Assembly (NCBI GenBank): GCA_031367385.1
Contig: JANLPS010000297.1
Location: 1 to 29,796 of the forward strand
Direction of reading: 5' to 3'
DNA length: 29,796 nucleotides
Source of the DNA: Archangium sp.
Lineage (GTDB): Bacteria; Myxococcota; Myxococcia; Myxococcales; Myxococcaceae
Below the pieces are notes generated by a model, which was given only the letters and a program-made list of their open reading frames with translations, ran no database searches and had not been told where the DNA came from. Below are positions 1,247-29,796 of this stretch, in pieces (position 1 is the first letter of the stretch; the number at the start of each line of letters is the position of its first letter). The position numbers and the translations under genes are program-made.

Positions 1247-3205
1247 ATGCGCCACGAATTTCGATTCGCCCTCATCGGGCTCGCCTTGGGTCTGGCGATC
1301 GCCACGATGCCAGGGTGCACCAAGAAGTGCGACGTCAGCTCTTGCCCGACGGGTTGTTGCTCGGCCGCCGGTGAGTGCAAGCCAGGCACCGCGCTCGACG
1401 CATGCGGTGTTGGCGCGAACGCCTGCTCGACCTGCAATGGCGGCAGCTGCAACGCCGGCGTGTGCTCGAACGGCACGGTGCATGGCGACGGCGGCGTGAT
1501 CGTCGCTCCGGCCGATGCGGGCCACATCACCTGCAAGACCGACGACGAGTGCGCGGTCTTGGCCAACGGTTCGGTCTGCGATACCCGCAGCGGTGACTGC
1601 GTCGCCGGCAAAGGGTGCAACGACGTCACCAACTGCCAACCCGACGACCCGACCGACCCTTGCTACCAGCTTGGGGTGCAGTGCCGGTGCGACACCCGCG
1701 ATGCGCCCGACACCACCACCCATGGTACCTGCCGCCGCCGCAAAGGCGCATGCGAACCCTGCACCACCGACGCAGAATGCGGTGATGACCCGGTGATCTT
1801 CGGGCCTCCTGGCATCGGCTACGGCAAGTGCCGCGCGATGACCGGCGACACCAGCGGCGCGAAGTTCTGTCTCTATCAACGGGTCGGCGCGTGCTCGTGC
1901 GGCAAGGTGCAAGACACCGAAGGCCTGTGCCGCCCGGTGAACAACAGCTGCACCGAGGTGGGCTGCCGCAACGATAAGAACTGCTCGAACAATACGGTGT
2001 GCACCGTGAATCTGCCCGATGGCGCCGGTGCCTGTGGCGGCGTCTGCAAGCCCCGCTGCCGGTGGGACTTCGACACCCGTGAGCTCGCCATGCCTGGCTG
2101 CCCCGGTGGCCAGACCTGCTGGGTCGACAGCGCCAACCTCGACGCGGGCTCGTTGTTCTATGGCTCGGGCCGCTGCACTGCTCCGTGTGCGGGTGATGCC
2201 GATTGCAAGGCTCCGATGAATGCGTTCGGCGGGGCCAACCTGGTGTGCGCGGGTGAAAAACTGAAGAGCGGCGGCAACGATGCCAAGCGCTGCCGCGCCG
2301 ACGGCCAGTGCATGGACGACTTCGAGTGCCCTGACTTGCCAAGCGATCAACCTCCGCTCGGGTATTGCGACAAGGGCTCGCGCACCTGCAAGACCGATTG
2401 CCGTGAGGGCAGCGACCCGATCAGCGGTAAGCCGTACCGAGACTGCCGAATGCCGTACGGGTGCAGCGGCGGCACCTGCAAGTTGCTCAGCTGTTTGCAG
2501 CAGGGCGGGGCGAACATCGCGTGCGTGCGCGGCCAATTCTGCTGCGGCGAAGACAAAGACGGAGACGGCAAGGCAGACCCGTGCCCTCCAGTCGCTGAGC
2601 AAGACGCGGCGGGGTGCTACGACGCTCCGAAGCCGCCGTTCTGTACGGCCTGCATGAACAACGACAGCTGCAAGAGCCCGACGTTGCCGGCGTATTTGAA
2701 CGGCGCGTGCACCAATGGCTCGAAGGCGCCCTCGTGCAGCACCTTGCCGCCCATCTGCATCAATGTCGGCCAGAAGCCCGGCGGAGGAGACGTCAAGGTC
2801 TGCGCCGTGCCCACGTGGAACGACGACACCAAGATCAACGGGCGCTTCAAGTACTCGCTTGGCTGCCCGCAGGGGTACGACATCAGGTTCTTGCGGCACG
2901 ACTTCGCCGAAGACGGCATCAACTATTGCAAGAGCGACGCTGACTGCAACAAGGGTACGACCAGCGGCAAGTGCGAGGTCGACCCCGACATTCGATACGC
3001 AGACGGTGGCACGGGCATGTCGTGCCGGTGCGACGCAAACTCGGGCAAGAGCCAGTGCCCGCAAGACTCGGCGAACAACATCGCGACCGAGTGCCGCGTG
3101 GCCTCGTCGGGCCGCACCTTCTGCATCGAGTCGGCGGTGTGCGTGCCGGGCAACGGCATCGCGTATCTGCCTCCGGGCGCGCCGTACTACGGCTGCGGTT
3201 TGTAA
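1247..3205 (+). CDS. Large cysteine-rich secreted lipoprotein
   Basis: Signal peptide with lipobox-like MPGC. Many CxxDxxC-type units (CKTDDEC, CTTDAEC, CRNDKNC, CAGDADC, CMDDFEC, CKSDADC) and a DKDGDG Ca-binding-like motif. Confidence 0.85.
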   Translation: MRHEFRFALIGLALGLAIATMPGCTKKCDVSSCPTGCCSAAGECKPGTALDACGVGANACSTCNGGSCNAGVCSNGTVHGDGGVIVAPADAGHITCKTDDECAVLANGSVCDTRSGDCVAGKGCNDVTNCQPDDPTDPCYQLGVQCRCDTRDAPDTTTHGTCRRRKGACEPCTTDAECGDDPVIFGPPGIGYGKCRAMTGDTSGAKFCLYQRVGACSCGKVQDTEGLCRPVNNSCTEVGCRNDKNCSNNTVCTVNLPDGAGACGGVCKPRCRWDFDTRELAMPGCPGGQTCWVDSANLDAGSLFYGSGRCTAPCAGDADCKAPMNAFGGANLVCAGEKLKSGGNDAKRCRADGQCMDDFECPDLPSDQPPLGYCDKGSRTCKTDCREGSDPISGKPYRDCRMPYGCSGGTCKLLSCLQQGGANIACVRGQFCCGEDKDGDGKADPCPPVAEQDAAGCYDAPKPPFCTACMNNDSCKSPTLPAYLNGACTNGSKAPSCSTLPPICINVGQKPGGGDVKVCAVPTWNDDTKINGRFKYSLGCPQGYDIRFLRHDFAEDGINYCKSDADCNKGTTSGKCEVDPDIRYADGGTGMSCRCDANSGKSQCPQDSANNIATECRVASSGRTFCIESAVCVPGNGIAYLPPGAPYYGCGL

Positions 3206-3801
3206 GTCTTTTTACCCAACACCATCGCCTCGACGCCCTGACGCAACGCGGCCGTCGCGGTGACCGTGCTCGCCGGGGGCCGGCTCAGCGTGGCCGCCCC
3301 GTGCGCCATGAACCAGACCTGGTGCGCCGTGACCTCGACCTCTTCGGCGGTGATCAGCTTCGCGCCGACCAGCGCCGTCACGGCTGAGATCAGCTCGTTG
3401 AAGGCGTCGTTCGAGGCCGTCGCCAGCTCGGGGTATTTTCGAAACTCGAGCCCGATGTTGAACATCAGGTCGAGCCGCTCTGGGTATTTCTGGCCGAAGA
3501 GCACGTAGCTCTCGCCCTGGCGAAGCAGGCCCTCGACCGGGTCTTTCGTGCTCAGCCGAGGTGCTCGAAGCGCGTCTCGAAACCCGATGAACGCTTCAGT
3601 CGCGGCGGCGGCGAGCAGGGCCTCCTTGTCGGCGAAGTGGCGGTAGACCGCTGCGCCCGAGACGTCGAGCAGGCGGGCCGCCCCGGTCAGCGAGACCGCC
3701 CGTGCGCCCTTGGCCTTGGCCAACTTGAGCGCGGCATCGATCAGCGACCGACGCAGATCTCCATGATGGTACGCTCCTTTACGCTTCGCCTTCGCAGTCA
3801 C
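3187..3801 (-). CDS. TetR/AcrR family transcriptional regulator
   Basis: N-terminal YHHGDLRRSLIDAA...SLTGAARLLDVSGAAVYRHFADKEALL helix-turn-helix and a C-terminal VWFMAHG motif (WHG-type). Confidence 0.92.
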   Translation of the reverse strand: MTAKAKRKGAYHHGDLRRSLIDAALKLAKAKGARAVSLTGAARLLDVSGAAVYRHFADKEALLAAAATEAFIGFRDALRAPRLSTKDPVEGLLRQGESYVLFGQKYPERLDLMFNIGLEFRKYPELATASNDAFNELISAVTALVGAKLITAEEVEVTAHQVWFMAHGAATLSRPPASTVTATAALRQGVEAMVLGKKTYKPQP

Positions 3802-3834
3802 CCCGCGACCATACCGTCTCGCATGTTGCTTGCC

Positions 3835-3851
3835 ATAACATTCAATGTTAT
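3835..3851. promoter_or_regulatory. Putative TetR operator, perfect palindrome ATAACATT-C-AATGTTAT
   Basis: An 8-bp perfect inverted repeat with a 1-bp spacer, in the 60-bp AT-rich gap between the divergent TetR and oxygenase genes. It lies between candidate -35 TTGCTT (3826-3831) and -10 TATTCG (3849-3854), overlapping the latter. Confidence 0.75.
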
Positions 3852-3861
3852 TCGTATTTAC

Positions 3862-5292
3862 ATGGAACCTACGATCGAGCTTCTGGGGGCGCAGTCTCCA
3901 TTTCGTTCAAACCTCTCGCGCCTTGAGGCCTCGGTGAAGGTGACCGGGGTGTTGCCCGAGTGGTTGACGGGGCAGGTGGTCCGAACGGCTCCGGCGGTGT
4001 TTCAGGCGCCGGGGTGGCAGGCCGGGCACTGGTTCGACGGGTTGGGCATGCTGTATGCGTTTCGGTTCGACGCGAAGGGAGCGGTGTCGTTTCGGCAGCG
4101 CTTGCTCGAGAGCACGATGGCGAAGGCGCCCGGCAAGCTGGCCTCGTTCGGCACGTCGATGCAGCGCGGGTTCTTCAAGCGCCTGTTTCAGCCGATACCG
4201 CCGCAGTCTGACAACACCAACGTGAACATCTTGCCGTACGGCGATGAGCTGGTCGCGATGACCGAGACCTCGACGCAGTGGGTGGTCGACCCCGAGACGC
4301 TCGAGAACAAGCGCACACTCCATTGGGAGGGCGATGAGCCGACCAACATGCTGGCGCACCCGCACTTCGACTTCGAGCGCAAGGTGATCGTCAATGTCGG
4401 CACGGTGTTCGGCCGCACATCGGCGCTGTCGGTGTTCGAGCATGGGCCCAACGAGCGAAAGCGGCGTGAAATCGGCCGTTGGGAGCTCAAGCGGGTGCCC
4501 TACGTGCACTCGTTCGGGCTGACGTCGAAGCACGCGGTGCTCATCGCGCACCCCTTCGATGTGTCGTCGCTGTCGATGCTCTGGTCGAACAAAGGCTACA
4601 TCGATCATTTCAAGTGGAGCGCAAGCCAAGGCACTCGTATCGCGGTCATCGATCGTTCGACGGGGGCGGTTCGTGAGCACCAGACGAAGGCCTTGTTCAC
4701 GTTTCACACGGTGAATTCGTTCGAAGAGGGCGACACGACAGTGGTCGACACGATCGCCTACGACGATGTCGAGGTGTTGCGACACCTGTCGGCGAGCGCG
4801 ATGTCGCATGGGTACCCGAACCTGAAATCGAAGCTGGTTCGGTTGCGCATGACGAAGGGCGTTGACGAGGCCACGGTCACGCAGCTGAGTGACACGTTCT
4901 TCGAGTTTCCCGCGATTCATTACAAACAGTTCGCTGGGCGGGCGTACCAGACGACCTGGGGTGCGTCGCTGTGGTCGCCCGAAGGAGGTGCCTTGCAGTC
5001 GCGAATCGTGAAGATCGACGTCGCGACCGGGCGAACGGCGCGCTTCGAAGACCCTGACTTCGTGTTCGGTGAGCCGCTCTTCGTGCCCAAGCCTGACGCG
5101 AAGGGTGAACAAGATGGGGTGCTCCTGACCGTCGGCTCGCACCGAAACGAAGACCGGGCCGCGCTCCAGATTCTCAGCGCGCAGTCGCTCGAGTCAATCG
5201 CGAGGGCCGAAGTCGACGTACCACTGCCTCTGGGGTTTCACGGCTCGTATTTAAGGGGGGCTGGCGAGCATGGGCAGCGCCCACCGCAGTGA
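3862..5292 (+). CDS. Carotenoid cleavage oxygenase / RPE65 family protein
   Basis: Motifs G.LPEWL.G, HWFDGLGM, DNTNVN, FEFP and GEPLFVP, with four iron-ligand His in AHPH, YVHSF, FHTVN and GFHG. Start moved to ATG 3862 because the longer ORF overlaps the TetR gene. Confidence 0.92.
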   Translation: MEPTIELLGAQSPFRSNLSRLEASVKVTGVLPEWLTGQVVRTAPAVFQAPGWQAGHWFDGLGMLYAFRFDAKGAVSFRQRLLESTMAKAPGKLASFGTSMQRGFFKRLFQPIPPQSDNTNVNILPYGDELVAMTETSTQWVVDPETLENKRTLHWEGDEPTNMLAHPHFDFERKVIVNVGTVFGRTSALSVFEHGPNERKRREIGRWELKRVPYVHSFGLTSKHAVLIAHPFDVSSLSMLWSNKGYIDHFKWSASQGTRIAVIDRSTGAVREHQTKALFTFHTVNSFEEGDTTVVDTIAYDDVEVLRHLSASAMSHGYPNLKSKLVRLRMTKGVDEATVTQLSDTFFEFPAIHYKQFAGRAYQTTWGASLWSPEGGALQSRIVKIDVATGRTARFEDPDFVFGEPLFVPKPDAKGEQDGVLLTVGSHRNEDRAALQILSAQSLESIARAEVDVPLPLGFHGSYLRGAGEHGQRPPQ

Positions 5293-9103: not shown

Positions 9104-9526
9104 TCAGATTTTGCGCCGCTTACCCGTGCGCTTGTAGGTCAGATAGTCGCTGACAATGGTCGAGTGATCAAAACAGAGATCTTTCGGTATCGCGTCGTGG
9201 CTGAAGGCTTTGGCTTCGGCCGCATCATCTGAACCACTGGGCTCGCCCTCGGCCCACCCGATGAACACGGTCGAAATCGTGTGTTTTCGGGGGTCGCGGG
9301 CCGGGTCTGAGTACGTGAAGAACTGCTCCGAGAGGTCGACCTCGAGGCCGGTCTCTTCACGCACTTCGCGCACGCAGGCCTGGTGCAGGGGCTCGCCTTC
9401 GTCGACGAAGCCACCGGGCAGCGCCCAGCCCAGCGGAGGGTTCGAGCGGCGAACCAGTACGATTCGGTCGCCGGGCAGCTCGACGATGCAGTCAACGGTC
9501 GGAGTCGGGTTTTTGTACGCCGGCAT
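9104..9526 (-). CDS. Nudix hydrolase (ADP-ribose pyrophosphatase-like)
   Basis: Nudix box [24 protein letters not shown], with [14 protein letters not shown] and FDH motifs. Confidence 0.92.
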
Positions 9527-18246: not shown

Positions 18247-19062
18247 TCAGTGGCCCTCGAGCGCTTCGACCTCTTTCAGGTCGTTGGGGGCGCTGGTGGT
18301 GAAGACCACCTTGAGCCCTTTGATTGCCTTGAGCCGCGCGAGGTGGGCCGCGTCGGGCTGGGCCGCTCCGAGGCAGACCACGCGCAGGTTTCGCAACGCA
18401 GGCTCGTCGCAGAGCGCGTCGACCCACCCGTTCGCGATCTGCGAGAGATCGGGCGCGGGCTGGCCGGGAGTCGGCACCCACCACGCCTGGTTGAGCGCAA
18501 GGTACTGCAGCGCGCTCAAGCGGTCGGCGATGGCACGCAGCCCGGCCCCGGTGATGTTGTTGTACGTCAGGTCTAACCGGAGGAGCCCTTCGAAGGCCGG
18601 CGCGATGCGCTTCAGCGCTGCGTCATCGAGCTTGTTGGCGACGAGGCTCACGAATGAAAAGCGTCGCAAGGGCAGCTTTGAAAAGGGCTCGTGCGAGGCC
18701 CTTTTCTTCAGCGAGGTCACGCCGACCCAAAGCCGCGGGTTGAGCTGCGAGATGAGCTCGAACCCCGCCACCAGCTGCGGCGCCTCGGTCACCACGCCGC
18801 GCACCAGCCCATGCTCATCGAAGTCGAACCGTCGAAGGTACGGTCGCGCCGGGCCGACCAATTTTCCCCAGAGCTTTTGAAGTTGCTCGAGGCGCTTCTG
18901 CTGCGCTGGGGTTCGCTTTGGCAGGAGGCTGAGCTGAATGAGCTCACCGCGAGGCTCTTGCGCTTCGATCAGCGCGTCGGCCCACACCCGCAGCGCATCG
19001 AGGTTGCTCGGGTCTCGAAAGTAGGTCTCGCGCACCCGGCGAGTCGCATCGTCGTCACCCAT
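18247..19062 (-). CDS. Leucine-rich-repeat protein with a TIGR02996-like N-terminal domain
   Basis: N-terminal DPSNLDALRVWADALIEAQEPRGELIQL; LRR-like LSLVANKLDD-type, LLRLDLTYNNITGAG and LQYLALNQ segments. Confidence 0.75.
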   Translation of the reverse strand: MGDDDATRRVRETYFRDPSNLDALRVWADALIEAQEPRGELIQLSLLPKRTPAQQKRLEQLQKLWGKLVGPARPYLRRFDFDEHGLVRGVVTEAPQLVAGFELISQLNPRLWVGVTSLKKRASHEPFSKLPLRRFSFVSLVANKLDDAALKRIAPAFEGLLRLDLTYNNITGAGLRAIADRLSALQYLALNQAWWVPTPGQPAPDLSQIANGWVDALCDEPALRNLRVVCLGAAQPDAAHLARLKAIKGLKVVFTTSAPNDLKEVEALEGH

Positions 19063-19071
19063 CGACGACGA

Positions 19072-20805
19072 TTAATACGGCACATCTTTGAGATTATCGA
19101 GCGGCTCACGCGACCGGGTCGCCGAGCTCGGCCGTCTCTGCAATGCGCTCAGCTCGACCGTCAGCGCGACATCGGCCATCGGTGAAATGGTTCGAGTCGC
19201 GGGCGCATACCCGTCGTGTCTGAACACCAGCTGCGCCGTTCGCCCAGGCTCCCAGTCGAGCTTCATCGGAGTCGTACCGATGATCGCATCGCCCTCGAGC
19301 ACTGTCGCATGGCTCGGCTGACTGTCGATCTGCACCATGATCGGGGCCGGCGCCGGGGGCTCGTCGACGACGGGTTCGGGCTCGACCGCCGCGGTGGCCG
19401 GCGTCGCTGCTGCCGGAGCAGGGCCATACTGAGCGCTGATGCGCCCGACGAGGCGGGGGGTTCGAATCGTCCAGCCAAGAGCTCCGAGACCGAGCAACAT
19501 CGTTGCTGCCACGACGACGAACGGTGTTCGCGAACGCAGCTGCCGGTGCTCGAGCTCGAGCTCTTTTTTTGCGGGGGCACGAGCGTCGAACACGTGCTGG
19601 AGGGCCGTAATGACGTCTCCCATCGACGGCGGGCGCTGCTCGGGCTGCTTGCGCAGCATCTGCATCACCAGCGTCGCCAGTCGCTCGGGCACCGGAGCAC
19701 AGTCGCTGGGCAGCGTCATCGATGGAGGTGGCTGGTGAATGTGGGCGGCGATCACCAGCGAGGGAGTCTCACCCTCGAACACCGGGCGCCCGGTGACCAG
19801 CTCATAGAGAATGAGCCCGAGCGAGTAGATGTCGCTGCGAGAGTCGACCGGCAACGTCGCCGCCTGCTCGGGCGACATGTATCGCGGCGTACCCATCAGC
19901 AGGCCCGAGCCGGTGGTGTGCGCATCGCTCGCCGTGCCAGTGGTGACCTTGGCGACGCCGAAATCGAGCACCTTGACGAAGTCGGGGCGATCATCGCGCT
20001 GCAAGATGATCACGTTGTCGGGTTTGAGATCGCGGTGCACGACGCCTCGTGAGTGCGCCGCGGCGAGCGCTCGGGCGATCTGCAAGCAAATGCCGATTGC
20101 GCGCCCGACCGGCAAGAGGCCCGCTTCGTTCAACAGCTCGCTCAAGGTTCGGCCCTCGAGGTATTCCATTACGAAGTAGAAGCGGCCATCGCTCGTTCGC
20201 CCGAAGTCGGAGATGTCGACGATGTTGTGCTGGCCGATGTGCGAGCAGGCGACCGCTTCACGCTTGAAGCGCTCGACGAAGTCGGGGTCGTTGCCGAGCT
20301 CGCGCCTCATCACCTTGATCGCCACCGTCTTGTCGAGCTCGACGTGCAGCGCCCGATAGACGTCGCCCATACCGCCCGACGCGACCTTGGCGACGATGCG
20401 ATAGCGGCCATCGATGTCTTCGGTCTGCCACAGCAGAATCGGCAGAGGGGAGGGGGCTGGCTCGAGCGCGCCCGTATCGAAGCGCGGCGCCGAGGCACGC
20501 TCGACGATCATGTCAGTGGTGCCAATGCGCAGCCGCGCGCCCTCACCGAGCATCGCCCGGTGAATCGCCGCGCCATTCACCAGCGTCGCTCCGAGGCCGG
20601 TGAGGTCTTCGACCCAGACCGTGCCGTCGCCTTGCTGAGCCACCCGAGCGTGCGCCGGGCTCACCAGCGTGTCGTGCAGGCGCACCGAGTTGCCCTCATC
20701 TGAGCCGAAGGTCACGTGATCGACGATCGGGTACCGCTCGCCCTGCGCGGGGCCCGTCACGGCGCGGAGTCGATAGGTCGGTTGGCGGCTGGGGCTCAGT
20801 GACAT
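19072..20805 (-). CDS. Membrane Ser/Thr protein kinase (FHA-like - kinase - TM - PEGA)
   Basis: ASGGMGDVY, VAIK, HRDLKPDN, DFG, GTPRYMSPE and SDIYSLG; a TM segment FVVVAATMLLGLGALGW; C-terminal IDSQPSHA...GTTP PEGA-like domain. Confidence 0.95.
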   Translation of the reverse strand: MSLSPSRQPTYRLRAVTGPAQGERYPIVDHVTFGSDEGNSVRLHDTLVSPAHARVAQQGDGTVWVEDLTGLGATLVNGAAIHRAMLGEGARLRIGTTDMIVERASAPRFDTGALEPAPSPLPILLWQTEDIDGRYRIVAKVASGGMGDVYRALHVELDKTVAIKVMRRELGNDPDFVERFKREAVACSHIGQHNIVDISDFGRTSDGRFYFVMEYLEGRTLSELLNEAGLLPVGRAIGICLQIARALAAAHSRGVVHRDLKPDNVIILQRDDRPDFVKVLDFGVAKVTTGTASDAHTTGSGLLMGTPRYMSPEQAATLPVDSRSDIYSLGLILYELVTGRPVFEGETPSLVIAAHIHQPPPSMTLPSDCAPVPERLATLVMQMLRKQPEQRPPSMGDVITALQHVFDARAPAKKELELEHRQLRSRTPFVVVAATMLLGLGALGWTIRTPRLVGRISAQYGPAPAAATPATAAVEPEPVVDEPPAPAPIMVQIDSQPSHATVLEGDAIIGTTPMKLDWEPGRTAQLVFRHDGYAPATRTISPMADVALTVELSALQRRPSSATRSREPLDNLKDVPY

Positions 20806-22469
20806 GGCTGCACCATGCCCGTGGTGACGTCGAACTCGCAGGCGTCTTTATGGCCGCAGGCGCAGTTGTCGCCGTTGCAGTCTTTGACCTTGCCGCACCC
20901 ATTGACGAAGGTTCCGGTCTCTCCACACCCCGGTACTCCGGTGGCTGGGCTGAAGGCCTTTTGGCGGCCCATGGGCTCTGCCATGACGGCGCCCCAGCCG
21001 GCCTTGCCGTCACCCTCGCACGGAGTGCCGAGGCCATTGGCCGCGCACACCGACGCGAAGCTGCAGCCCGTGAACCCCTCGGCGTACTGAAAATCGGGAG
21101 ACCCGCTGCAGTCGTAGTCGAAGTTGCCGCACGCGCTTGCTTTCGTGAAGTACCCTTTTTGGCCCGGCTTCGCGTCGGCATCGGTGTCGCAGCAGTCGTT
21201 TTTGTTCGACACGTAGCCGGTCGGGGCTTTGGGCTTCATACCGCAGACCGCTTGCGTCACGCGTGGGTCGCCCGCGCCGTCTTGGTCTGCGTCGCGGTAG
21301 AAGGTCTGCGATTGCGGCGCCGCCGAATCGACGCAAGTGGGGCGGCCGGTCGTGCATTGCGTGGTCCCCGCGGCGCAGGGCGCCCCGGGGTTGGTCGTGC
21401 AAGAGGCCCCGCTGACACAGGGGGTGCAGATATGCGCTGGGTCGCAGACCTGGTTGGTGCCGCAGCTCGCCCCGACGGTCTTGGGCGCTCCATCGACGCA
21501 CGTTCGCAGGCCGGCGGTACAGGCCGTGATACCCGCGAAGCACGGGTTGGGGTTCGTCGCACAGGCTTCGCCCGGGGCGCAGAGGCCGCAAAAGCCGGCC
21601 CCGTCGCAAATCGCCGCGACTCCGCAGACTTCACCCGCTTTCTTGGGTTCTCCGTCGGCGCATACCGAAGCCCCCGAGCCACACGACGTGACCCCGAAGC
21701 GGCACTTCGATGGGTTGGTACCACAGCTTTTGCCTGCTTCGCAGCTGACGCAACTGCCACTGCTGTTGCAGACCAGTGTGCCCCCGCATTCGGTACCCGT
21801 TGGTGCTTGCTTCGCGTCGATGCACGTCGGTGTTCCGGTGGCGCAGGAGGTCAGCCCTTCGAAGCAGGTTGCCCTCGGGTTGCTCGCGCAGGACAGCCCT
21901 GCTGCGCATTCGATGCAAACCCCTGCGGCGCTGCAGACCTTGTTCTCGGCGCACGATTGGCCGGCGCTCTTGCCGTGGCAGACGTTGGGGTCTTGGCAGC
22001 TCCCGTTGTGGCATTGGCCCTCGTCGCACACCACGCCGACGCAGGTAACATCGACACAGGCACCTCCAACACAGGCGGCACCCTCGAGACACACCGAGGC
22101 GCCGCACACCCGGCTGACGCAGCTGCCCTGAACGCAAGTGAAACGGCTGTCGCACGGTATGCGCAAGCAGGTGGTCTGGGTGCAGCGCCCTCCGAGGCAC
22201 ACCTGGTCGGCTGAACAAGTGCCTTCGACACAGCTTCGGCCGAGGCAGGCACCCTCGAAGCACGTCTCGCCAGAGCCACAAGCCGGAGCACAGGTGGCGC
22301 ACCGGCCGCCGTCGCACTCTGCTCCGCCGTCGGTGCTGGTAAGCTCGAGCGTGCACCCACCGTTGCCGGCGCGGCAGTCAGCCAGGCGCTTGTCGAAATC
22401 GATGCACCCCATGCTTACAGTAGTCATGACTACCATCGCTATGGATGGTATGCGCGCGCCGGCCCTCAC
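20796..22469 (-). CDS. Cysteine-rich repeat lipoprotein
   Basis: GTG 22469 overlaps the upstream stop and gives a signal peptide ending VSMGC. Four ~54-aa CxxNP...C...G...C...C.D repeats and a FYRDADQDGAGD motif. Confidence 0.82.
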   Translation of the reverse strand: MRAGARIPSIAMVVMTTVSMGCIDFDKRLADCRAGNGGCTLELTSTDGGAECDGGRCATCAPACGSGETCFEGACLGRSCVEGTCSADQVCLGGRCTQTTCLRIPCDSRFTCVQGSCVSRVCGASVCLEGAACVGGACVDVTCVGVVCDEGQCHNGSCQDPNVCHGKSAGQSCAENKVCSAAGVCIECAAGLSCASNPRATCFEGLTSCATGTPTCIDAKQAPTGTECGGTLVCNSSGSCVSCEAGKSCGTNPSKCRFGVTSCGSGASVCADGEPKKAGEVCGVAAICDGAGFCGLCAPGEACATNPNPCFAGITACTAGLRTCVDGAPKTVGASCGTNQVCDPAHICTPCVSGASCTTNPGAPCAAGTTQCTTGRPTCVDSAAPQSQTFYRDADQDGAGDPRVTQAVCGMKPKAPTGYVSNKNDCCDTDADAKPGQKGYFTKASACGNFDYDCSGSPDFQYAEGFTGCSFASVCAANGLGTPCEGDGKAGWGAVMAEPMGRQKAFSPATGVPGCGETGTFVNGCGKVKDCNGDNCACGHKDACEFDVTTGMVQPCH

Positions 22470-23455
22470 GGCAGCACCCCGGTCAGGCCCAGGCTGGCCC
22501 CGCCTGGGAACAGTGAGACCACCGGTGAAACCGGGGCCTCCGCGGTGGTTGCCAAGAAGATGATGCTGGTGACTGCGCCAACACCCGCCAGGCCGACTCC
22601 GACCCAGCCGAGGGTCTGCTCGGTCTTGCCTCTCACGGCGAGGTCTTGCGCTCGAGCCGTCACTCCGCCGTGGCTGGCCAACTCGAGGTCGAGGTCTTTC
22701 GCCGCGGTCGCCGCCATGACGAACCCTCCTGCCGCCAGGCCCGCTCCGACGGCCGTGGCGGTGATTGGGAGCCATGCAAATTTTCGCAATGGATACTGTC
22801 GCGAAGGTGACGTTCTGAAGCTCTTGAGCTCACCCGACGGGTCGCGGCTCAGGGGGTCGCCAGGGGCTGGCTTCTCTGGTTCGAGCGCAAAGGCGGGGAG
22901 CGCGGGCGGCTGAAGCACGTAGGAAAGCTCCATCGACTTGTGGGTCGACATGACGAAGCTGCGGGAGACCGTCTCGAGCCCGGCATGAGCGATTCGCACC
23001 CGGTGGTCGCCTGGCGGCAGCTCGACGAAGGCAGGGGAGCGGCCGATCGCCGCGCCATCGATCAAAATCAAGGAGTCAGCAGGCTCGGCCAACACCATCA
23101 GCTGCTGAACTCCTTTGGCCTTGAGCTGACGCTCGAGGCCGACAATCGCGCCATCGACCTCTTCGCGGTCGGCCGCGTCAGGTCGCTCTGCGAGATAGCT
23201 GCGGTAGGCCCTGAGCGCCGCAGGCGCGTTGCCAAGCTCTTCATGGCAGCGCGCAATGTTGAAGTAGATGGCCGCGTGCGGTTTCAGGGTGTAGGCCTTC
23301 TCGAATTGGCCCGCGGCAGCCGAGAATTGGCCCGCGCGAAACAGCTCTTGGCCTGAGAGAAATGCCGCGCGCGCTGCTGCGTCGACCGAAGCCGTTGGGG
23401 CTGCCGGAGTCGCGACACAGACGATGGCAACCGACAGCGCTCCGAGAAACGGCAT
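22466..23455 (-). CDS. TPR + PEGA domain exported protein
   Basis: Signal peptide; TPR helices (AAGQFEKAY, IYFNIARCHEELG); PEGA domain (EPADSLILIDG...GRSP...LPPGDHRVRI); Gly-rich hydrophobic C-terminus. Confidence 0.88.
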   Translation of the reverse strand: MPFLGALSVAIVCVATPAAPTASVDAAARAAFLSGQELFRAGQFSAAAGQFEKAYTLKPHAAIYFNIARCHEELGNAPAALRAYRSYLAERPDAADREEVDGAIVGLERQLKAKGVQQLMVLAEPADSLILIDGAAIGRSPAFVELPPGDHRVRIAHAGLETVSRSFVMSTHKSMELSYVLQPPALPAFALEPEKPAPGDPLSRDPSGELKSFRTSPSRQYPLRKFAWLPITATAVGAGLAAGGFVMAATAAKDLDLELASHGGVTARAQDLAVRGKTEQTLGWVGVGLAGVGAVTSIIFLATTAEAPVSPVVSLFPGGASLGLTGVLP

Positions 23456-23647
23456 ACGCGCCCCTTGTGCAACTCACAGGCCTTCGGCGGTCGTGAAATA
23501 GGAGGGAGCTGGCGGAGGGGATGCCCGCATTTTCGCCATGCCGAGCGCCGATGGTGCAAGCTCGCCACACCCCTTCAGCCCCACGCAGATGCCACGTTTC
23601 AACGAGTTATGACCACTCGTGTGCACAAGAGCGCCGCAACGAGCGGC

Positions 23648-24136
23648 TCAGGCATTGGCGGCTTCGTGCAGCTTCATCGCTTCGCGGCTGAACGCGGCCA
23701 GGCGGTAGAGCACAGTGCGGCGAGAGACGCCCAGTGTAGCGGCGACCTTCGACTGATCCATGCCCTTGCCGTGGTAGAGCATCGCGGGGGTTCTCAGGGC
23801 CTCGGGCGAGTTGTCGAGCACGTGGTTCGCGAAATTGCGAGCCACCACCATCTCCTCGAACTCGTCGTCGACCATGTCGGGTACGTGCTCGACCGGCTCA
23901 GCGTGGCGCTTCGAATCGCGCAGCACATTGAGGCAGTGGTTCGTCGTGATTCGGTGAATCCACGGGAGCACGGCGTCTTCACTTGGCGCCGAGTCGATGT
24001 GCTTGAGCACCTTCATGAACACGTCTTGGGTCGCGTCTTCGGCGACGACCTGGTTCTTCAACAGACGGCGGCAGCGCGCGTAGATGGTCGGCCCATACTT
24101 GGCGTACATCGCTTCAACTCGGTTCGTCGCAGCCAT
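23648..24136 (-). CDS. ECF-type RNA polymerase sigma factor
   Basis: Region 2 AEDATQDVF...WIHRITTNHCLN and region 4 helix-turn-helix VAATLGVSRRTV. GAGGAAG RBS before ATG 24136. Confidence 0.93.
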   Translation of the reverse strand: MAATNRVEAMYAKYGPTIYARCRRLLKNQVVAEDATQDVFMKVLKHIDSAPSEDAVLPWIHRITTNHCLNVLRDSKRHAEPVEHVPDMVDDEFEEMVVARNFANHVLDNSPEALRTPAMLYHGKGMDQSKVAATLGVSRRTVLYRLAAFSREAMKLHEAANA

Positions 24137-24300: not shown

Positions 24301-24321
24301 ATAGAGTCTTGACGACTCTTT
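24301..24321. promoter_or_regulatory. Putative NrtR-type operator overlapping a sigma70-like promoter
   Basis: ATAGAGTC-TTGAC-GACTCTTT palindrome (GTC-N5-GAC core) centred on TTGACG (24309-24314), with TATGAC 17 bp downstream. It lies upstream of NAD salvage genes. Confidence 0.65.
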
Positions 24322-24355
24322 TTATGATATATATGACTCTTTCACGGAGATCTTC

Positions 24356-25801
24356 ATGAGCGCACCGCTGCTGGCAACCGACGGGTACAAGTTTTCGATG
24401 GCCGAGGCGGGGTGGCCACTGCGCCGGGAGACCTTCTATTCGTCGCATCGGAAGGGTGGCCTGCAGGTGCTGCCTTTCGATGTCGAGGCGGAGCTGGCTT
24501 TGCTGATGCCGGTCGCGCAAGCGGGCGACTGGGAGTGGCTTCGTAATCATGATTATGAAATGGGCGGGGGCTTCAAGGCCGCCATCGCCACCTACGCGGT
24601 CACGGTGCGGGCCCTGCCTCGCTTTTCGGTCTTTCACGATCGGGAGCCGATCTTTTCGATCACCGGCCCCTCGGCGCTGGTCTCATGGCTCGAGCCGCTG
24701 GTGCTGACCTGGAACTACCGAATTCAAGTCGCGACGGTTGCGTTGCTTCGACCCGAGGCATTGGGGCAATCGGTGGGCACCGTGACCTGCGAAGCCCAGC
24801 GTGACCTGGTGCTTCGAACCCTCGACGCGGTTGGCGTCAAGGCGCCTCCGATTCGGGTCGATGCCGATGGCTACATCGAGCGCGTTCGGGCTCAAGCGGC
24901 GGCCCTGGTCGCAGTGACCGCCGACGCGGGGAGGATCTTCGAGGTCGGCCTGCGAGCGGCGAGCTGCCTCGAGCAGCACTTGCTCGCGCTCGAGGGCTGC
25001 AAGGCCGCGGGCGTGATGCGCACCAGCAACGTGTACGGCGCGAAGGTCAAGGGCCTGGTGCCCGTCGGCACGATGGGGCACGAGCACATTCAGCGGTACG
25101 GCAGTGACCCGGCCGCGTTTCGCGCGATGATTGAGCGGCGTCACCAGCGTTCGAGCTTTCTGCTCGACACGTTCGACACCATCACTTCGGGGCTGCCGGC
25201 GGCCTTCGAGATCATGGCCGAGCGCAAGGGTGCGCACGACTCGATTCGCTACGACTCGGGTGACAAGGAGCTGCAGTACCGGCACGCCGCGAAGCTGGCG
25301 AACGCGATGGGTTTGCGGCCGGTTCAAATTCTCGAAGACGGGTTCGATGAAGCGCAGACCAGGCGCTTCGAAGCGCTCCGCGTCGAGCTCGGCGTGCGAC
25401 CCGAAGAGCAAGTGTATGGGTACGGCGGGTATCTCGTGGCACAGACCTCTGGTTCGGCGCTGACCCGAGACCGGGTCTCGGCGGTCTACAAGCTGTGTCA
25501 AACCGGGCAGCGCGCGACGATGAAGTTCGGCAACGAAGCCGGCGCGGGCAAAGAGAGTCTCCCCGGGCGGCCGGTGTTGTTTCGACGAGGCGCGGGGGTC
25601 AGTGGCCCATTCGGCATCGTCGGGCAAGCAGGCGAAGCGCCTCCGCCCGGGTACGCGGCGCTCGACGCGGTCGCCGATCTTCAGACAAATCTTCGCGTCG
25701 CACGCGAGGTCGCCTCGGCTGATTTGCGCCTTGGGCTTTCGGCGCAGACGCAGGCGCTCACCGACTCGCTCCGCACGGCCGCGTTTGGAGTGAAAACATG
25801 A
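24356..25801 (+). CDS. pncB: Nicotinate phosphoribosyltransferase (divergent)
   Basis: ATDGYKFSM, FEVGLR, TSNV, GTMGHE (phospho-His motif), LLDTFD, IRYDSGD and VYKL. GGAG RBS upstream. Confidence 0.88.
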   Translation: MSAPLLATDGYKFSMAEAGWPLRRETFYSSHRKGGLQVLPFDVEAELALLMPVAQAGDWEWLRNHDYEMGGGFKAAIATYAVTVRALPRFSVFHDREPIFSITGPSALVSWLEPLVLTWNYRIQVATVALLRPEALGQSVGTVTCEAQRDLVLRTLDAVGVKAPPIRVDADGYIERVRAQAAALVAVTADAGRIFEVGLRAASCLEQHLLALEGCKAAGVMRTSNVYGAKVKGLVPVGTMGHEHIQRYGSDPAAFRAMIERRHQRSSFLLDTFDTITSGLPAAFEIMAERKGAHDSIRYDSGDKELQYRHAAKLANAMGLRPVQILEDGFDEAQTRRFEALRVELGVRPEEQVYGYGGYLVAQTSGSALTRDRVSAVYKLCQTGQRATMKFGNEAGAGKESLPGRPVLFRRGAGVSGPFGIVGQAGEAPPPGYAALDAVADLQTNLRVAREVASADLRLGLSAQTQALTDSLRTAAFGVKT

Positions 25802-26751
25802 CGCGCGAGAGCCGTGCGTACTTGACCGGGGCCAGCGCACGAGCCAGGGCATTCGACATCACGCCTGCGGTGACGGCTGCCCGCGGCGCGTTCGAGAAAT
25901 TCGCACTCGATGAGCCGCTCGCCGACGCGCTCGAGCGCTCAGCGGGCGAGGCGACGGTCGAGTTTGAGACGACGTCTGGAGAGATGCCTGCCGCTGGCGC
26001 CTTTGAGAAGTTCGCATTCGACGAGCTGCGAGCCGGCGCGCTCGAGCGCTCAGCGTGCGAGGCGACGGTAGAGTTTGAGACGACGTCTGGAGAGATGCCT
26101 GCCGCTGGCGCCTTTGAGAAGTTCGCATTCGACGAGCTGCGAGCCGGCGCGTTTGAGCGCGCAGCGTGCGAGACGACGGTCGAGTTTGAGATGACGTCTG
26201 GAGAGAGGCCTGCCGCCGGCGACTTCGAGAACTTCGCATTCGACGAGCTGCGCGCCGGCGCGTTCGAGCGCGCAGCGGGCGCGGCGACGGTCGAGTTTGA
26301 AACGACGTCTGGAGAGAGGCCTGCCGCCGGCGCCTTCGAGAAGTTCGCATTCGACGAGCTGCGCGCCGGCGCGTTCGAGCGCGCAGCGGGCGAGGCGACG
26401 GTCGAGTTTGAAACGACGTCTGGAGACGTGCCTACCGAAAGCGCCTTCGAGAAATTCGCACTCGACGGCACGCCCGCGAACGCGCTCGACTGCAAAGTGG
26501 GCGCGGCGCCAGTCGTGTTCGAGACGACGTCTGTCGCGAAATTCGCATTCGACGGCCCGCTCGCCGACGCGCTTGAGTGCACATTCGACCTGGCCTTGGC
26601 GGTCGCGTTCGCCGCCGGCGGTGCACTGGTGGCTGCACCGGGCGCCGAGACCCCCTCAGTCCTCCCTGGCCTTGCGCACGACAGGCTCGTCGCTCGCTCG
26701 GAGATTATCAGCGCGGTGATTCATTCGTCGGCTTCGGGAGCGTTCATATGA
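25798..26751 (+). CDS. Hypothetical acidic tandem-repeat protein (37-aa repeats)
   Basis: The ORF fills the gap between pncB and PP2C exactly, with ATGA overlaps at both ends. Repeat consensus AFEKFAFDELRAGAFERAAGEATVEFETTSGE(M/R)PAAG. Confidence 0.55.
   Translation: MTRESRAYLTGASARARAFDITPAVTAARGAFEKFALDEPLADALERSAGEATVEFETTSGEMPAAGAFEKFAFDELRAGALERSACEATVEFETTSGEMPAAGAFEKFAFDELRAGAFERAACETTVEFEMTSGERPAAGDFENFAFDELRAGAFERAAGAATVEFETTSGERPAAGAFEKFAFDELRAGAFERAAGEATVEFETTSGDVPTESAFEKFALDGTPANALDCKVGAAPVVFETTSVAKFAFDGPLADALECTFDLALAVAFAAGGALVAAPGAETPSVLPGLAHDRLVARSEIISAVIHSSASGAFI
25888..26590. repeat. 111-bp tandem repeat: 5 full units plus degenerate 6th and partial 7th
   Basis: The anchor TT(C/T)GAGAA recurs at 25891, 26002, 26113, 26224, 26335 and 26446, an exact 111-bp period. 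Confidence 0.95.
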
Positions 26752-27428
26752 TTCGCGGCGCGTCGGTGATCGGCCGGGAGCACGTTCGGTTGGGCCGCAA
26801 CAATCAAGACGCGTGGGCGAGCGCAGAGCACCGACGTGCCCAGACCATCGTCGTCGCCGACGGCTGTTCGAGCGAAACGAATTCAGAAGTCGGCGCCCAA
26901 CTGGCGTCGCGGTGGCTCGCTCGGTGGGTTGCACAGCACTCAGCTGACCAAGCCCTCGATGCCCAGCTCGCGCTCGATGCGACCCGCGCGTTGACGGCTT
27001 GGCTGTATCGCCTCGCCAGCTCGCTCGATGGCGACGAGGCGAGCGTGATTCAGCACTACCTGCTCTTCACCGTGCTCTGCGCGACGTCGTTCGGCGACAG
27101 CACACTGGTGTTCGGCATCGGCGACGGCGTGGTGCAGGTCGACGAGCGGCTGATTCTCCTCGACTCCGGCCCCGAGAACGCGCCGAGCTACATCGCCTAC
27201 CGCCTCACCGGAGCGACCAGGCCCGAGCCGCAGATTCATTTCATCGGCACCGCGCGCCAGGTCACACTGATGACCGATGGGCTCGAACCCGTCGCCCACC
27301 GCGCCACCACATTGCTCTCAGAGCTGGGAGCGAACCCCCGCGCACTGCAACGGCGATTGAACGTTTTTTCCGAGACCGAACGGCTGCTCGACGACGCGAC
27401 GATCGCGACCCTCGCGGTGGAGGCGTGA
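26748..27428 (+). CDS. PP2C-family phosphatase (TerY-P/YegK-like)
   Basis: GASVIGREH...NNQDA, VVADGCSS, GIGDG, MTDGL and DDATI motifs. ATG 26748. Confidence 0.9.
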   Translation: MIRGASVIGREHVRLGRNNQDAWASAEHRRAQTIVVADGCSSETNSEVGAQLASRWLARWVAQHSADQALDAQLALDATRALTAWLYRLASSLDGDEASVIQHYLLFTVLCATSFGDSTLVFGIGDGVVQVDERLILLDSGPENAPSYIAYRLTGATRPEPQIHFIGTARQVTLMTDGLEPVAHRATTLLSELGANPRALQRRLNVFSETERLLDDATIATLAVEA

Positions 27429-29185
27429 TGGACGTCTTCCTCGCCAATGCCCGCGTTCACCTCGACGACTCCGACCTTCTCGGCGAAGGCGGCGAAGCGC
27501 GCGTGTACCGCTACAAAGACCTCGCGTTGAAGGTGTTTCATGCGGTCACCCCTGGCACCCCTGAGGCCACGGTTCGCGCGCAAAAGCTGAAGAAGCTCAA
27601 CGCGTTTCCCGGAGGGTTGCCGCTCGAGGTGGTCGCGCCGACGGGGCCGTTGACCGACGCCAAGAGCCGGGTCGTCGGCTACGCGATGAAAGCAGTCACA
27701 GGTGAAGACGTCGGCCGGCTCGGCTCTCGCAAGCGACGCGCGAGCAACCTCGAGGTCACCGAGCTGTTTTGCAACTTGCAGCGCGTGGTCAGCCAGCTGC
27801 ACGCGAGCAAGGTCATCATCGGCGACTTCAATGACGGCAATGTGCTCTTCACTCGCACCACGCCGTACCTCATCGATGCCGATTCAATGCAGTTCGCCGG
27901 CATTCCATGCGCGGTCGGCCACGAGAAATTTCTCGACCCGGCGCTCTATGGAGTCGACCTCGCTGCCGCCCCGCGCTTCACCGAGGGGAGCGACTGGTAC
28001 GCCTGGGCGGTGATGCTGTTCTCGAGCCTGATGTACGTGCACCCGTTCGGTGGCACCCACGCGAAGCTCGGCACGCTCCTGCGCCGGGCCGAAGCGCGCC
28101 ACTCGGTGCTCAAGCCCGATGTCACCTGGCCCCGGCTCGCCGCTTCGCGGAGCTGCCTGCCCGACGACGCGCTGCACTGGTTCTCATCGGTCTTCGATCG
28201 CGACGAGCGCAGCGTGCCACCGCCAGCGATGACCTCTCTGCGCTGGTCGAAGTGCAAGTGCGGCACCGAGCATGCGCGTGCGGTGTGCCCTGAATGTCAC
28301 GCCCTCGGAGCGCCGATCGTCAGGCAGGTCTTGCGCGCCAAAGGCCGATGCGTCGCGCGCACCGCATTTCAAACCGGCGGTCGAATTCTCGCGGCCGCGA
28401 TGCAGGGTGGCCTGCGCTACGTGTACGAAGAGAACGGCGTCGTACGCAGAGAAGACGGCAGCCACGTGGGCTCGGCGAACGCGACGGGCCACTATCTGCT
28501 CTCGGGTGCCACGACCTGGGCGCTGAGCGCCGGCGGCGATGTCGAGCGGGTGGTGAATGGCAAGGTGACCGAGCGCCTGCACACCGGCGTGCGCGCAGGC
28601 ACCGCCGTCTTTGGAGCCTCGACGAGCTCGAGCTATCGGCAGGAGCACGAGTGGTTGATCGAGGTGAACTCCGGCTCGCGCGTCGGTCAAGTGCTCGAAG
28701 GCCAGACTTGGCTCTGGTCGGGCGAGCGCTTGTCTCTGGGGTTCTACCGGGCGGGCGGGTTCACCCACGCTTTCTTGATTCGCGCGGGGAGGGCAGGGCT
28801 GGTGCAGCTGGCCGCTCCAGCATGGGCCGGCCGTATCGTCGAGGCCAACGCGGTGTTCGACGCACACCACGCGCTGCTTTCGGTCGTGACCGATGCCGAT
28901 GGCAAAGAGACCGTGCATCGCACCTTGTATTCAGACGGCGGCGCTCTGCTCGCGCGCGGCACCGGTGGCCCAAAAGGCAACGCGGCATTGATGAACGGCA
29001 AAGTCGTGCTCGCCACCGATGGGGGCCTGGTGCTGCTCAAGGTCGATTCAGGTGTGTTTCTCGAGTCGGTTCATTTCGCCGACACCCAGCCCTTCGTCAG
29101 CGCGGGAGACGAACTGCTGCCTCAGCCCGACGGCTCGTTGCTGGTCGTCGGGCCCCGCGACATCACCCAGCTCACTCTCACGTAA
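27428..29185 (+). CDS. Atypical Ser/Thr kinase (YegI/TerY-P-like) with Zn-ribbon-like motif and beta-rich C-terminal domain
   Basis: GEGGEARVY, ALKVF, IIGDFNDGNVL, LIDADSMQ, SDWYA and HPF; CKC...H...CPEC. ATG 27428 overlaps the PP2C stop (TGATG). Confidence 0.88.
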   Translation: MDVFLANARVHLDDSDLLGEGGEARVYRYKDLALKVFHAVTPGTPEATVRAQKLKKLNAFPGGLPLEVVAPTGPLTDAKSRVVGYAMKAVTGEDVGRLGSRKRRASNLEVTELFCNLQRVVSQLHASKVIIGDFNDGNVLFTRTTPYLIDADSMQFAGIPCAVGHEKFLDPALYGVDLAAAPRFTEGSDWYAWAVMLFSSLMYVHPFGGTHAKLGTLLRRAEARHSVLKPDVTWPRLAASRSCLPDDALHWFSSVFDRDERSVPPPAMTSLRWSKCKCGTEHARAVCPECHALGAPIVRQVLRAKGRCVARTAFQTGGRILAAAMQGGLRYVYEENGVVRREDGSHVGSANATGHYLLSGATTWALSAGGDVERVVNGKVTERLHTGVRAGTAVFGASTSSSYRQEHEWLIEVNSGSRVGQVLEGQTWLWSGERLSLGFYRAGGFTHAFLIRAGRAGLVQLAAPAWAGRIVEANAVFDAHHALLSVVTDADGKETVHRTLYSDGGALLARGTGGPKGNAALMNGKVVLATDGGLVLLKVDSGVFLESVHFADTQPFVSAGDELLPQPDGSLLVVGPRDITQLTLT

Positions 29186-29197
29186 AGGAGGTTCACC

Positions 29198-29796
29198 ATG
29201 TCGTTGCCGTTACCGTCGTTTTACGAGCCGAAACAAGTGCCTGCGCTGTACCTGGAGCGCGCGGGGTTGGTCGCCGATGCCGGCGAGGCTTTCGCCAAGC
29301 ATCACGGCATCAAGCCCGCGGGCGCAGACAAGTTCAAGATCGCCGCTTTCGGCATCGATGTGCAGGTGGGCTTCTGCACGCCTGGCGCGAGCCTCTTCGT
29401 GCCCGGCGCGGTGGAGGACACGCAGCGCACCATCGAGTGGCTGTACCGAAACCTGGGTGAGATCAGCGGGCTGTTCTTCTCACTCGACACCCATCGCATG
29501 TTTCAAATCTTTCACCCCTCGTGGTGGGTCGACGCGAAGGGCAATCACCCGGCTCCGATGACGCCGATTTTTCACGAAGAAGTGCGCTCAGGAAAATGGA
29601 CGGCGGTCACCCACCCGAAGGAGAGCCTCGAATACGTGAAGAAGCTCGAGACCACCGGCAAGTACGTGCTCACGGTGTGGCCGTACCACACGCTGCTCGG
29701 CGGCCTTTCTCACGCGTTGGTGCCAGCGATGATGGAGGCGTCGCTCTTTCACGCCGCCGCGCGCAAGCACCAGACGCACTTCGAGACCAAGGGCAC
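29198..29796 (+). CDS. pncA: Nicotinamidase / isochorismatase-like cysteine hydrolase, 3'-truncated
   Basis: Not in the ORF track because it runs off the edge. AAGGAGG RBS and ATG 29198. Hand translation gives MSLPLPSFY...GIDVQVGFC...SLFVPGA...SLDTH...IFH...WPYH...ETKG. Confidence 0.85.
   Translation, partial: MSLPLPSFYEPKQVPALYLERAGLVADAGEAFAKHHGIKPAGADKFKIAAFGIDVQVGFCTPGASLFVPGAVEDTQRTIEWLYRNLGEISGLFFSLDTHRMFQIFHPSWWVDAKGNHPAPMTPIFHEEVRSGKWTAVTHPKESLEYVKKLETTGKYVLTVWPYHTLLGGLSHALVPAMMEASLFHAAARKHQTHFETKG

Follow-up and report, generated by a model that had tools for sequence, protein, structure and literature searches.

Previously, two kinds of bacterial system have been described that bear on the locus analysed here, one metabolic and one signalling. 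In salvage of nicotinamide adenine dinucleotide (NAD+), the nicotinamidase PncA converts nicotinamide to nicotinate, PncB converts nicotinate to nicotinate mononucleotide (NaMN), and NadD and NadE complete NAD+; ADP-ribose releases the repressor NrtR from DNA. The core of the NrtR site is GT-N7-AC in the accessible text of Rodionov et al. 2008 (PMC2330246). TerY-phosphorylation (TerY-P) triads, as defined in the accessible parts of PMC10542128 and PMC4978471, consist of a vWA (von Willebrand factor type A) protein with a metal-ion-dependent adhesion site (MIDAS), a PP2C phosphatase and a Ser/Thr kinase with a zinc ribbon. The Escherichia coli kinase YegI, with atypical motifs similar to those reported below, is an active kinase whose substrate is an open question, according to the available text of 10.1101/819920. 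Here we describe a locus that carries both kinds of gene at the right-hand end of a 29,796-bp contig (C390) of the Archangium sp. genome G000 (7.97 Mb, 65% GC, 98% complete); the entire contig is the window. With confidence slightly better than even, we read the locus as an NrtR-repressed NAD+ salvage operon in which the nicotinamidase is controlled by phosphorylation through a TerY-P cassette.

An earlier note, made from the letters of the window, had described five co-oriented open reading frames (ORFs) with their overlaps, the kinase motifs and a palindrome in front of them. All of these were confirmed at their coordinates, and the vWA gene that the note expected for a TerY-P triad was located on the contig that we place next to C390:

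24301–24321, plus strand: predicted NrtR operator, a 21-bp palindrome, ATAGAGTC-TTGAC-GACTCTTT, over a TTGACG -35-like hexamer
24356–25801, plus strand: PncB, divergent nicotinate phosphoribosyltransferase (NAPRT), from TIGR01513 (E 4.6e-33), motifs and alignment to solved relatives
25798–26751, plus strand: repeat ORF, lineage-specific insertion with ATGA coupling at both ends
25877–26533, no strand assigned: tandem array in the repeat ORF, 111-bp unit, 5.9 copies, 88% matches, one open frame per strand
26748–27428, plus strand: PP2C-type phosphatase, PphC/YegK-like (PF13672 E 2.3e-20; match to E. coli PphC by BLASTP at E 1e-6)
27428–29185, plus strand: YegI-like Ser/Thr kinase, with kinase domain 1–275, zinc ribbon C276, C278, C287 and C290, and an all-beta C-terminal domain at about 300–585
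29198–29796 (contig end), plus strand: PncA, first 199 of about 323 residues; the C-terminal part is at L001 6454–6900, minus strand, on contig C535
L001 5636–6436 (contig C535), minus strand: TerY-like vWA gene, 266 aa (PF00092 E 1.3e-6; hhalign to YegL)

The ORFs encode 481, 317, 226, 585 and 199 aa, the last being cut by the contig end, and their junctions are ATGA, ATGA and TGATG overlaps followed by a 12-bp gap. The gene order in G000 is therefore pncB, repeat ORF, PP2C, YegI-like kinase and long-form pncA, with the vWA gene after pncA across the proposed contig join. Conserved membership of the operon, as the earlier note drew it, holds for the pncB, PP2C, kinase and nicotinamidase genes and fails for the repeat ORF.

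The identities of both salvage enzymes were borne out by motifs, fold matches and the NAPRT alignment. PncB scores under every NCBIfam and curated cut-off (115 bits against 297 for TIGR01513, 14.5 against 20.8 for PF04095), and by these scores it is a divergent subfamily outside any named equivalog. Its best solved relatives, the NAPRTs of Enterococcus faecalis (2f7f, E 2e-19) and human (4yub), are colinear with it over the full length. The invariant elements TDGYK, R200, T223-S224, GTMGH242 and RYDSGD match the NAPRT motif set TDxYK, TSN, GTxxH and RxDSGD, and RA/RS replaces the RR of Gram-positive-type NAPRTs. Thr-Ser stands at the position where the E. faecalis and human enzymes show TSN, and we take it to mark the use of nicotinate over nicotinamide. 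No second NAPRT-like gene and no nicotinamide phosphoribosyltransferase (NAMPT) was found in G000. The earlier note had counted it against its own proposal if these were the genome's only housekeeping pnc genes, and this point does tell against it: this pncB is the sole NAPRT found in the 98%-complete genome. G000 also carries nadA, nadD and nadE away from the operon, among them the NadD and NadE that the note wished to find outside the window, so salvage is complete and is not the only route to NAD+. Across the family, pncB is single-copy in 113 of 140 genomes; at L036 and L038, both from cultured-type Myxococcaceae, a pncB of the ordinary Gram-positive type is found close by in head-to-head orientation.

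For PncA, residue numbers follow the orthologue in the same-genus genome G001 (92% identical). An alignment of 99 rows keeps D54, D97, H99, W161, H164, K198 and C249 without exception in its 95 classified rows; C249 lies outside the window, on C535. Aligned to 3pl1, PncA has an Asp-Lys-Cys set (D54/K198/C249) and a second set (D97/H99/H164), which we take to be the catalytic triad and the metal site, respectively. In its motifs (DxH, WPxH, K and HC), the protein agrees with nicotinamidases. PncA has no Pfam or NCBIfam match, and a PDB search with the truncated hydrolase as a single sequence gave no match; with the family profile, Mycobacterium tuberculosis PncA came out on top (E 6e-4). The model made for the G001 orthologue has a predicted local distance difference test (pLDDT) score of 68.5, and six of its seven fold matches at E <1e-3, the top ones included, are nicotinamidases. 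Databases also label many family members 'nicotinamidase'. Three other cysteine hydrolases of G000 that match PF00857 were considered as nicotinamidase and set aside, as by eye they lack the DxH and WPxH motifs.

The end of the hydrolase gene (its C-terminal 148 residues) and the vWA gene stand at the end of C535, which shares with C390 a 75-bp overlap that contains 8 mismatches and ends in 38 identical bp. We infer that the two contigs are joined because the order kinase-hydrolase-vWA-TIGR02996 is found in G001 and because each of the genes occurs once in G000. In two runs of a single study, contigs span 26560–29796 unbroken, with 24 differences, and extend past both ends. The C535-type letters at 29737–29758 occur in short contigs, which likely come from a co-occurring relative, so that the first bases of C535 probably derive from such a relative. 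The window sequence was found in sediment metagenomes from two studies, with no RNA listed among the matching sequencing runs, and the closest named relatives of G000 are Myxococcaceae metagenome-assembled genomes.

The three signalling proteins have the features of a TerY-P triad, with metal and catalytic positions conserved in each. In the phosphatase, D21, D38, D126, D177, D215 and D216 are kept by 90% or more of the 62 aligned rows. The kinase has the motifs GDFNDGN (132–138) and IDADS (149–153) with invariant K35, D133, N138 and D150, and hhalign aligns it with E. coli YegI through the zinc ribbon (99.6%, E 9e-24). Its model (pLDDT 93.8, predicted template modelling score 0.55) folds as a Hanks kinase (Z about 19), the C-terminal half being all beta. 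As to a C-terminal OB-fold, a feature of the type in Gao 2020, some 290 residues of beta strands are seen here, and the top Foldseek matches of the whole model are the kinase-WD40 structures of LRRK2. The model thus suggests, without showing it, that the C-terminal domain is likely a propeller; the ESM Atlas gave no usable match for this domain. The vWA protein aligns with YegL (hhalign 89%, E 2e-6), and its MIDAS is intact and invariant in 59 rows (D65-S67-S69/T136/D172). Its C-terminal S244, S246 and S251, conserved in 98–100% of the 59 rows, are candidate phospho-sites, and YegL has serines in the corresponding helix. By these features the MIDAS vWA protein, the PP2C and the zinc-ribbon Ser/Thr kinase make up a TerY-P triad, the vWA member through the proposed contig join. 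Directly after the vWA gene, in both G000 (L001:4222-5613, minus strand) and G001, lies a gene for a TIGR02996/leucine-rich-repeat protein, which may be co-transcribed with it; homologues occur in 19 related loci.

The palindrome in front of pncB points to NrtR. No other stretch of the 7.97-Mb genome comes within 1 mismatch of its inner part, AGAGTC-N5-GACTCT at 24303–24319. With a query taken from the window alone and up to 2 mismatches, the palindrome was found upstream of 26 of 28 triad-linked pncB operons in relatives, of 2 of 10 triad-less pncB genes, and in 11 of 5000 random genome stretches. The other of two clades has the variant GTGTC-N5-GACAC before 7 of 8 nrtR genes, and both variants are GT-N7-AC. 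We predict from these patterns that the palindrome is an NrtR operator. A strict sigma-70 scan reported no promoter at this site, which was additionally listed as terminator-like. The NrtR-Nudix gene that the earlier note suggested seeking outside the window exists as the single nrtR of G000, in trans (C183:4356-5081; NF050029 E 6.7e-51, under the 400-bit cut-off); its product, a Nudix-winged helix-turn-helix protein, is 65% identical to that of the nrtR inside the operon of the relative G022. Genome-wide, the operator of this operon scores 29.8, a site before a transaldolase/fsa gene 24.6, and all others at most 15.9. The transaldolase/fsa site (L170:2161-2181; C50:21660) is kept in 0 of 17 relatives and was not counted; it lies between that gene and a divergent 190-aa ORF, presumably 2-oxoglutarate-Fe(II) oxygenase-like. 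Directly after nrtR in G000 (L138:5090-6466, on C183) is a gene whose 458-aa product fuses a NadM-like nucleotidyltransferase domain to a class I S-adenosylmethionine (SAM) methyltransferase. The same fusion is found at L026:4726-6105 and L057, and it is the last gene of the G022 operon, pncB-PP2C-kinase-pncA-vWA-nrtR-fusion. It could modify a pyridine nucleotide.

The divergence of the two enzymes leaves room for another substrate. The hydrolase and the phosphoribosyltransferase may act on a nicotinamide-like compound, in detoxification or in the synthesis of an NAD+ analogue; the missing Pfam match of the former, the sub-threshold scores and RA/RS of the latter, and the fusion gene behind nrtR in G000 and at two relatives' loci would all suit this idea. 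However, the motifs and top fold matches of the hydrolase are those of a nicotinamidase, and G000 has no other NAPRT or NAMPT that we could find. We consider this explanation improbable.

We searched 301 genomes of the phylum for the linkage of NAD+ salvage genes and triad; none of the claims depends on G073, an unpublished genome in this set. The genomes compared are kin, so that all counts are descriptive and overstate independence. The kinase was found in 126 genomes and PncA in 152, with PncA in all 126 kinase genomes and in 26 without the kinase. At 20 loci fetched from the best kinase matches, PncA lies downstream in 19 and vWA in 18, the misses being contig ends (the twentieth contig stops inside the kinase), while pncB lies upstream in 10 (and in G001) and nrtR in 8. 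The best 80 of at least 341 PncA relatives have the kinase and/or vWA adjacent in 51 cases and all three triad genes in 38; 25 have none and 4 could not be judged. Within the same 80, 22 show pncB-PP2C-kinase-pncA, 13 have pncB without the triad, and in 27 the locus includes a same-strand nrtR. What is conserved as a unit is PP2C-kinase-PncA-vWA, with pncB as a variable partner. Thus the co-conservation of kinase and PP2C with the pnc genes that the earlier note looked for holds for PncA, a fixed partner, and only variably for pncB. The kinase-PncA link is shared by two clades of PncA with about 40% identity between them, and in a quick, midpoint-rooted tree with long branches the triad-less copies are nested among triad-linked ones, forcing at least 3 changes. 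The variable accessory neighbours are NAD genes (pncB, nrtR, nadE, nadD-like, NAD kinase and ADP-ribosylglycohydrolase genes). Among the loci L033, L036, L038 and L039 of cultured-type Myxococcaceae, foreign DNA of several kb lies between the kinase gene and pncA in some, for example in L039.

Taken together, ADP-ribose-induced NAD+ salvage is likely the best reading of these sequences, with phosphorylation control of the nicotinamidase as its predicted part. NAD+ cleaved by the cell's own sirtuins or ADP-ribosyltransferases, by rival toxins or by defence NADases would yield ADP-ribose, which would lift NrtR repression of the operon. The induced PncA and PncB would then recover the freed nicotinamide to NaMN, and PncA would be adjusted in its activity by the kinase and PP2C, acting on it directly or by way of the vWA protein as adaptor. 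The recovery half of what the earlier note proposed stands in this form, while its anti-phage half is unsupported, as discussed below.

Duplication of PncA in the relatives bears on the phosphorylation step. Of the 126 kinase genomes, 83 have at least two PncA matches (in G000 the two matches represent halves of a single gene). Among those examined, the other PncA belongs to a triad-less pncB-pncA pair, mostly without the operator. In the cultured-type genera examined, nrtR-PP2C-kinase-pncA-vWA occurs alongside a separate pncB-pncA pair, and in the G000 lineage both arrangements are merged into one operon. A second copy that dispenses with the triad makes the cassette copy dispensable for basal salvage in most cultured-type myxobacteria, as would be expected if the locus were a branch of NAD-stress signalling: PncA or its product would be the input, the kinase would act on other targets, for which its all-beta C-terminal domain of about 290 aa could serve as a docking site, and the triad would be co-induced with PncA rather than gate it. 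The co-occurrence data fit such a branch too. Yet G000-like genomes have one PncA for both roles, in one operon with pncB, the triad-linked PncA retains its full catalytic set with no decay to a sensor, and no conserved effector gene lies near the related loci. We regard this signalling branch as rather unlikely, though less so than the other-substrate explanation.

Several observations weigh against a phosphorylation-controlled salvage operon. The control step is a prediction, and where relatives have a further, ungated PncA, as many do, this copy, which suits a signalling role too, would bypass a simple flux gate. The 25 triad-less loci among the best 80 PncA relatives have all catalytic residues intact, and no Ser or Thr of PncA was found to be conserved only in triad-linked copies. 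The substrates nicotinamide and nicotinate are assigned to PncA and PncB from residues and folds, and the 8 mismatches in 75 bp count against the contig join that supplies the vWA gene. Residue 229 of PncA is Phe in nearly all triad-linked copies and Leu in 22 of 25 triad-less ones, a difference that reflects few independent events. A complex prediction for PncA and vWA (the G001 pair, 59-row alignments) gave no answer, with a score of 0.00, and was not used as evidence.

The cassette is also found beyond myxobacteria. At three loci, two labelled candidate phyla radiation (CPR) and one Gammaproteobacteria, it sits amid nadE, NAD kinase and pncB genes, with a nadD-like gene in two, nrtR in two and an ADP-ribosylglycohydrolase gene in one. 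In IMG/VR, the kinase and vWA accompany PncA at 6 of 6 PncA loci, and PncA is present at 18 of 21 kinase loci; the two sets have 4 contigs in common, and some entries are near-duplicates or maybe not phage. Three phage records of 462–595 kb have PncA, vWA and PP2C within 9 kb, two of them with the kinase too. A scan of 86 neighbours at 16 viral loci turned up NadE at 3 of the loci and, at a single locus each, NAPRT, a NadD-like protein and NrtR; the L130/L157 viral locus has both NadE and PncB. On a 436-kb IMG/VR contig, a homologue of major vault protein (MVP shoulder, Vault_3; L146:2477-5083) lies about 1 kb upstream of PP2C-kinase-PncA-vWA.

This distribution bears on the anti-phage function suggested by the earlier note, in which a TerY-P-type defence would have NAD+ salvage as its helper. 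In its favour, each triad protein has a homologue in E. coli (YegL, PphC and YegI), and TerY-P-like modules work as stand-alone antiphage systems according to the accessible text of PMC10542128, which cites Gao et al. 2020. PADLOC gave weak matches to PD-T4-6 (E 1e-5) and PDC-M21C (E 4e-6), which are generic kinase and PP2C matches, and none for vWA or PncA. Against this function, the kinase is single-copy in 112 of 140 family genomes at a stable site, with recurring housekeeping neighbours across related loci (ECF sigma 17, lptA-like 16, glnS 13, rpoN 11), and no nuclease, helicase or mobile gene adjoins the operon in G000. Phages carry the whole cassette, and the NrtR-type operator links the locus to NAD metabolism. 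The single-copy stable locus, the generic PADLOC matches and the phage-borne copies favour NAD+ recovery over an anti-phage weapon, which we hold to be hardly probable.

The repeat ORF was rejected as a functional member of the operon because it has no codon-position bias and no homologues and is absent in relatives. At codon positions 1/2/3, the variable columns among five copies of the repeat number 8/8/9, no selection being apparent, and the synonymous/non-synonymous differences between copies (33/78) are in line with the other five frames. No homologue was found in 150 family genomes, of which 39 give only short, weak, chance-like matches of about 75 nt; the exact sequence is absent from the protein collection, and its Pfam and NCBIfam matches are under cut-off. 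G001 and 10 other relatives lack it, and in 10 relatives the pncB-PP2C gap is -14 to 122 bp, so that the genes nearly touch. By sequence comparison, the repeat ORF is a private insertion, a passenger whose kept ATGA coupling would allow translation of the genes downstream. L022, L027 and L028 have differing low-complexity or long insertions at the PP2C start or inside PP2C, and the pncB-PP2C junction seems to have tolerated insertions repeatedly.

Other genes of the window were noted in passing. A divergent cluster on the minus strand (18247–24136) encodes an extracytoplasmic function (ECF) sigma factor, a tetratricopeptide repeat (TPR)-PEGA protein, a 659-aa cysteine-rich repeat protein, an FHA-Ser/Thr kinase-PEGA protein and a 271-aa leucine-rich-repeat-like protein; its ECF sigma gene adjoins the operon again in 17 related loci. 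A stand-alone Nudix hydrolase gene (9104–9526, minus strand), 15 kb from the operon, resembles ADP-ribose pyrophosphatase domains and could supply ribose 5-phosphate from ADP-ribose. A second cysteine-rich repeat protein (652 aa) and an ORF beside a TetR-like regulator lie at 1247–3205 and 3637–5292; we take that ORF to be carotenoid oxygenase-like from a motif.

Compared with E. coli yegL-pphC-yegI, the locus has the same vWA, PP2C and atypical zinc-ribbon kinase, all three homologous, and the kinase resembles YegI in having DxD for DFG and a GD-type catalytic loop, as far as the accessible text of 10.1101/819920 describes them. In contrast, a nicotinamidase is placed here between kinase and vWA in the order PP2C-kinase-PncA-vWA, and the C-terminal domain of the kinase is all beta, while YegI is reported to be an integral membrane protein. 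Unlike TerY-P triads, the locus has an NrtR-type operator, a core single-copy distribution and no DNA-processing partners. It agrees with the NAD salvage I regulons of NrtR in pairing pncA with pncB under a 21-bp GT-N7-AC palindrome over promoter elements (Rodionov et al. 2008, PMC2330246, accessible text) and in having a Nudix-winged helix-turn-helix repressor in the genome. It differs from them in that both enzymes are divergent long forms; the accessible text of PMC2330246 lists no kinase, phosphatase or vWA member and mentions neither 'Myxococcus' nor 'von Willebrand'. We found no literature joining TerY, vWA or PP2C to nicotinamidase or NrtR within a coverage that left out Anantharaman, Iyer and Aravind 2012 and De Souza and Aravind 2012, which may list the neighbourhood. 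In their accessible parts, PMC9503650 mentions neither nicotinamidase nor PP2C, PMC2887360 does not mention 'nicotin', and PMC12484599, which has a PncA-like gene of phage G, mentions neither PP2C nor von Willebrand.

The triad is tied here to one assayable enzyme, which provides a concrete substrate candidate for a YegI-type kinase with a simple read-out, nicotinamide deamidation. PncA of the model strain Myxococcus xanthus DK1622 (ABF89544.1) falls in one 90% cluster with a triad-linked copy, so that the system is likely tractable by standard genetics. If true, our reading would add a layer of post-translational control to bacterial NAD+ salvage, and the giant-phage copies would widen the known phage counter-measures to NAD+ depletion. 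Like the viral cassettes here, which have nadE, pncB or nadD-like genes nearby at several loci, NARP1 and NARP2 (10.1101/2024.02.11.579819) and NARP3 (PMC13464706) are phage-borne and rebuild NAD+. In the accessible text of these sources, NARPs use Adps/Namat, Nampt/Nmnat or PnuC/NadR, whereas the system here is mostly cellular and, as predicted from its genes, combines a deamidating PncA-PncB route with a kinase switch. Tentatively, and with more doubt than confidence, we propose that PP2C-kinase-PncA-vWA acts as a so far undescribed switch, common to myxobacteria, CPR bacteria and giant phages, by which phosphorylation controls the entry to NAD+ salvage, that it would give phages a further, deamidating and kinase-controlled NAD+ reconstitution against NAD-depleting immunity, and that PncA or vWA would be the first defined substrate of a TerY-P kinase. 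To the described systems the locus adds a merged pncB-triad-pncA form with nrtR in trans and a kinase that depends on PncA in one direction only; the analysis also takes the repeat ORF out of the system.

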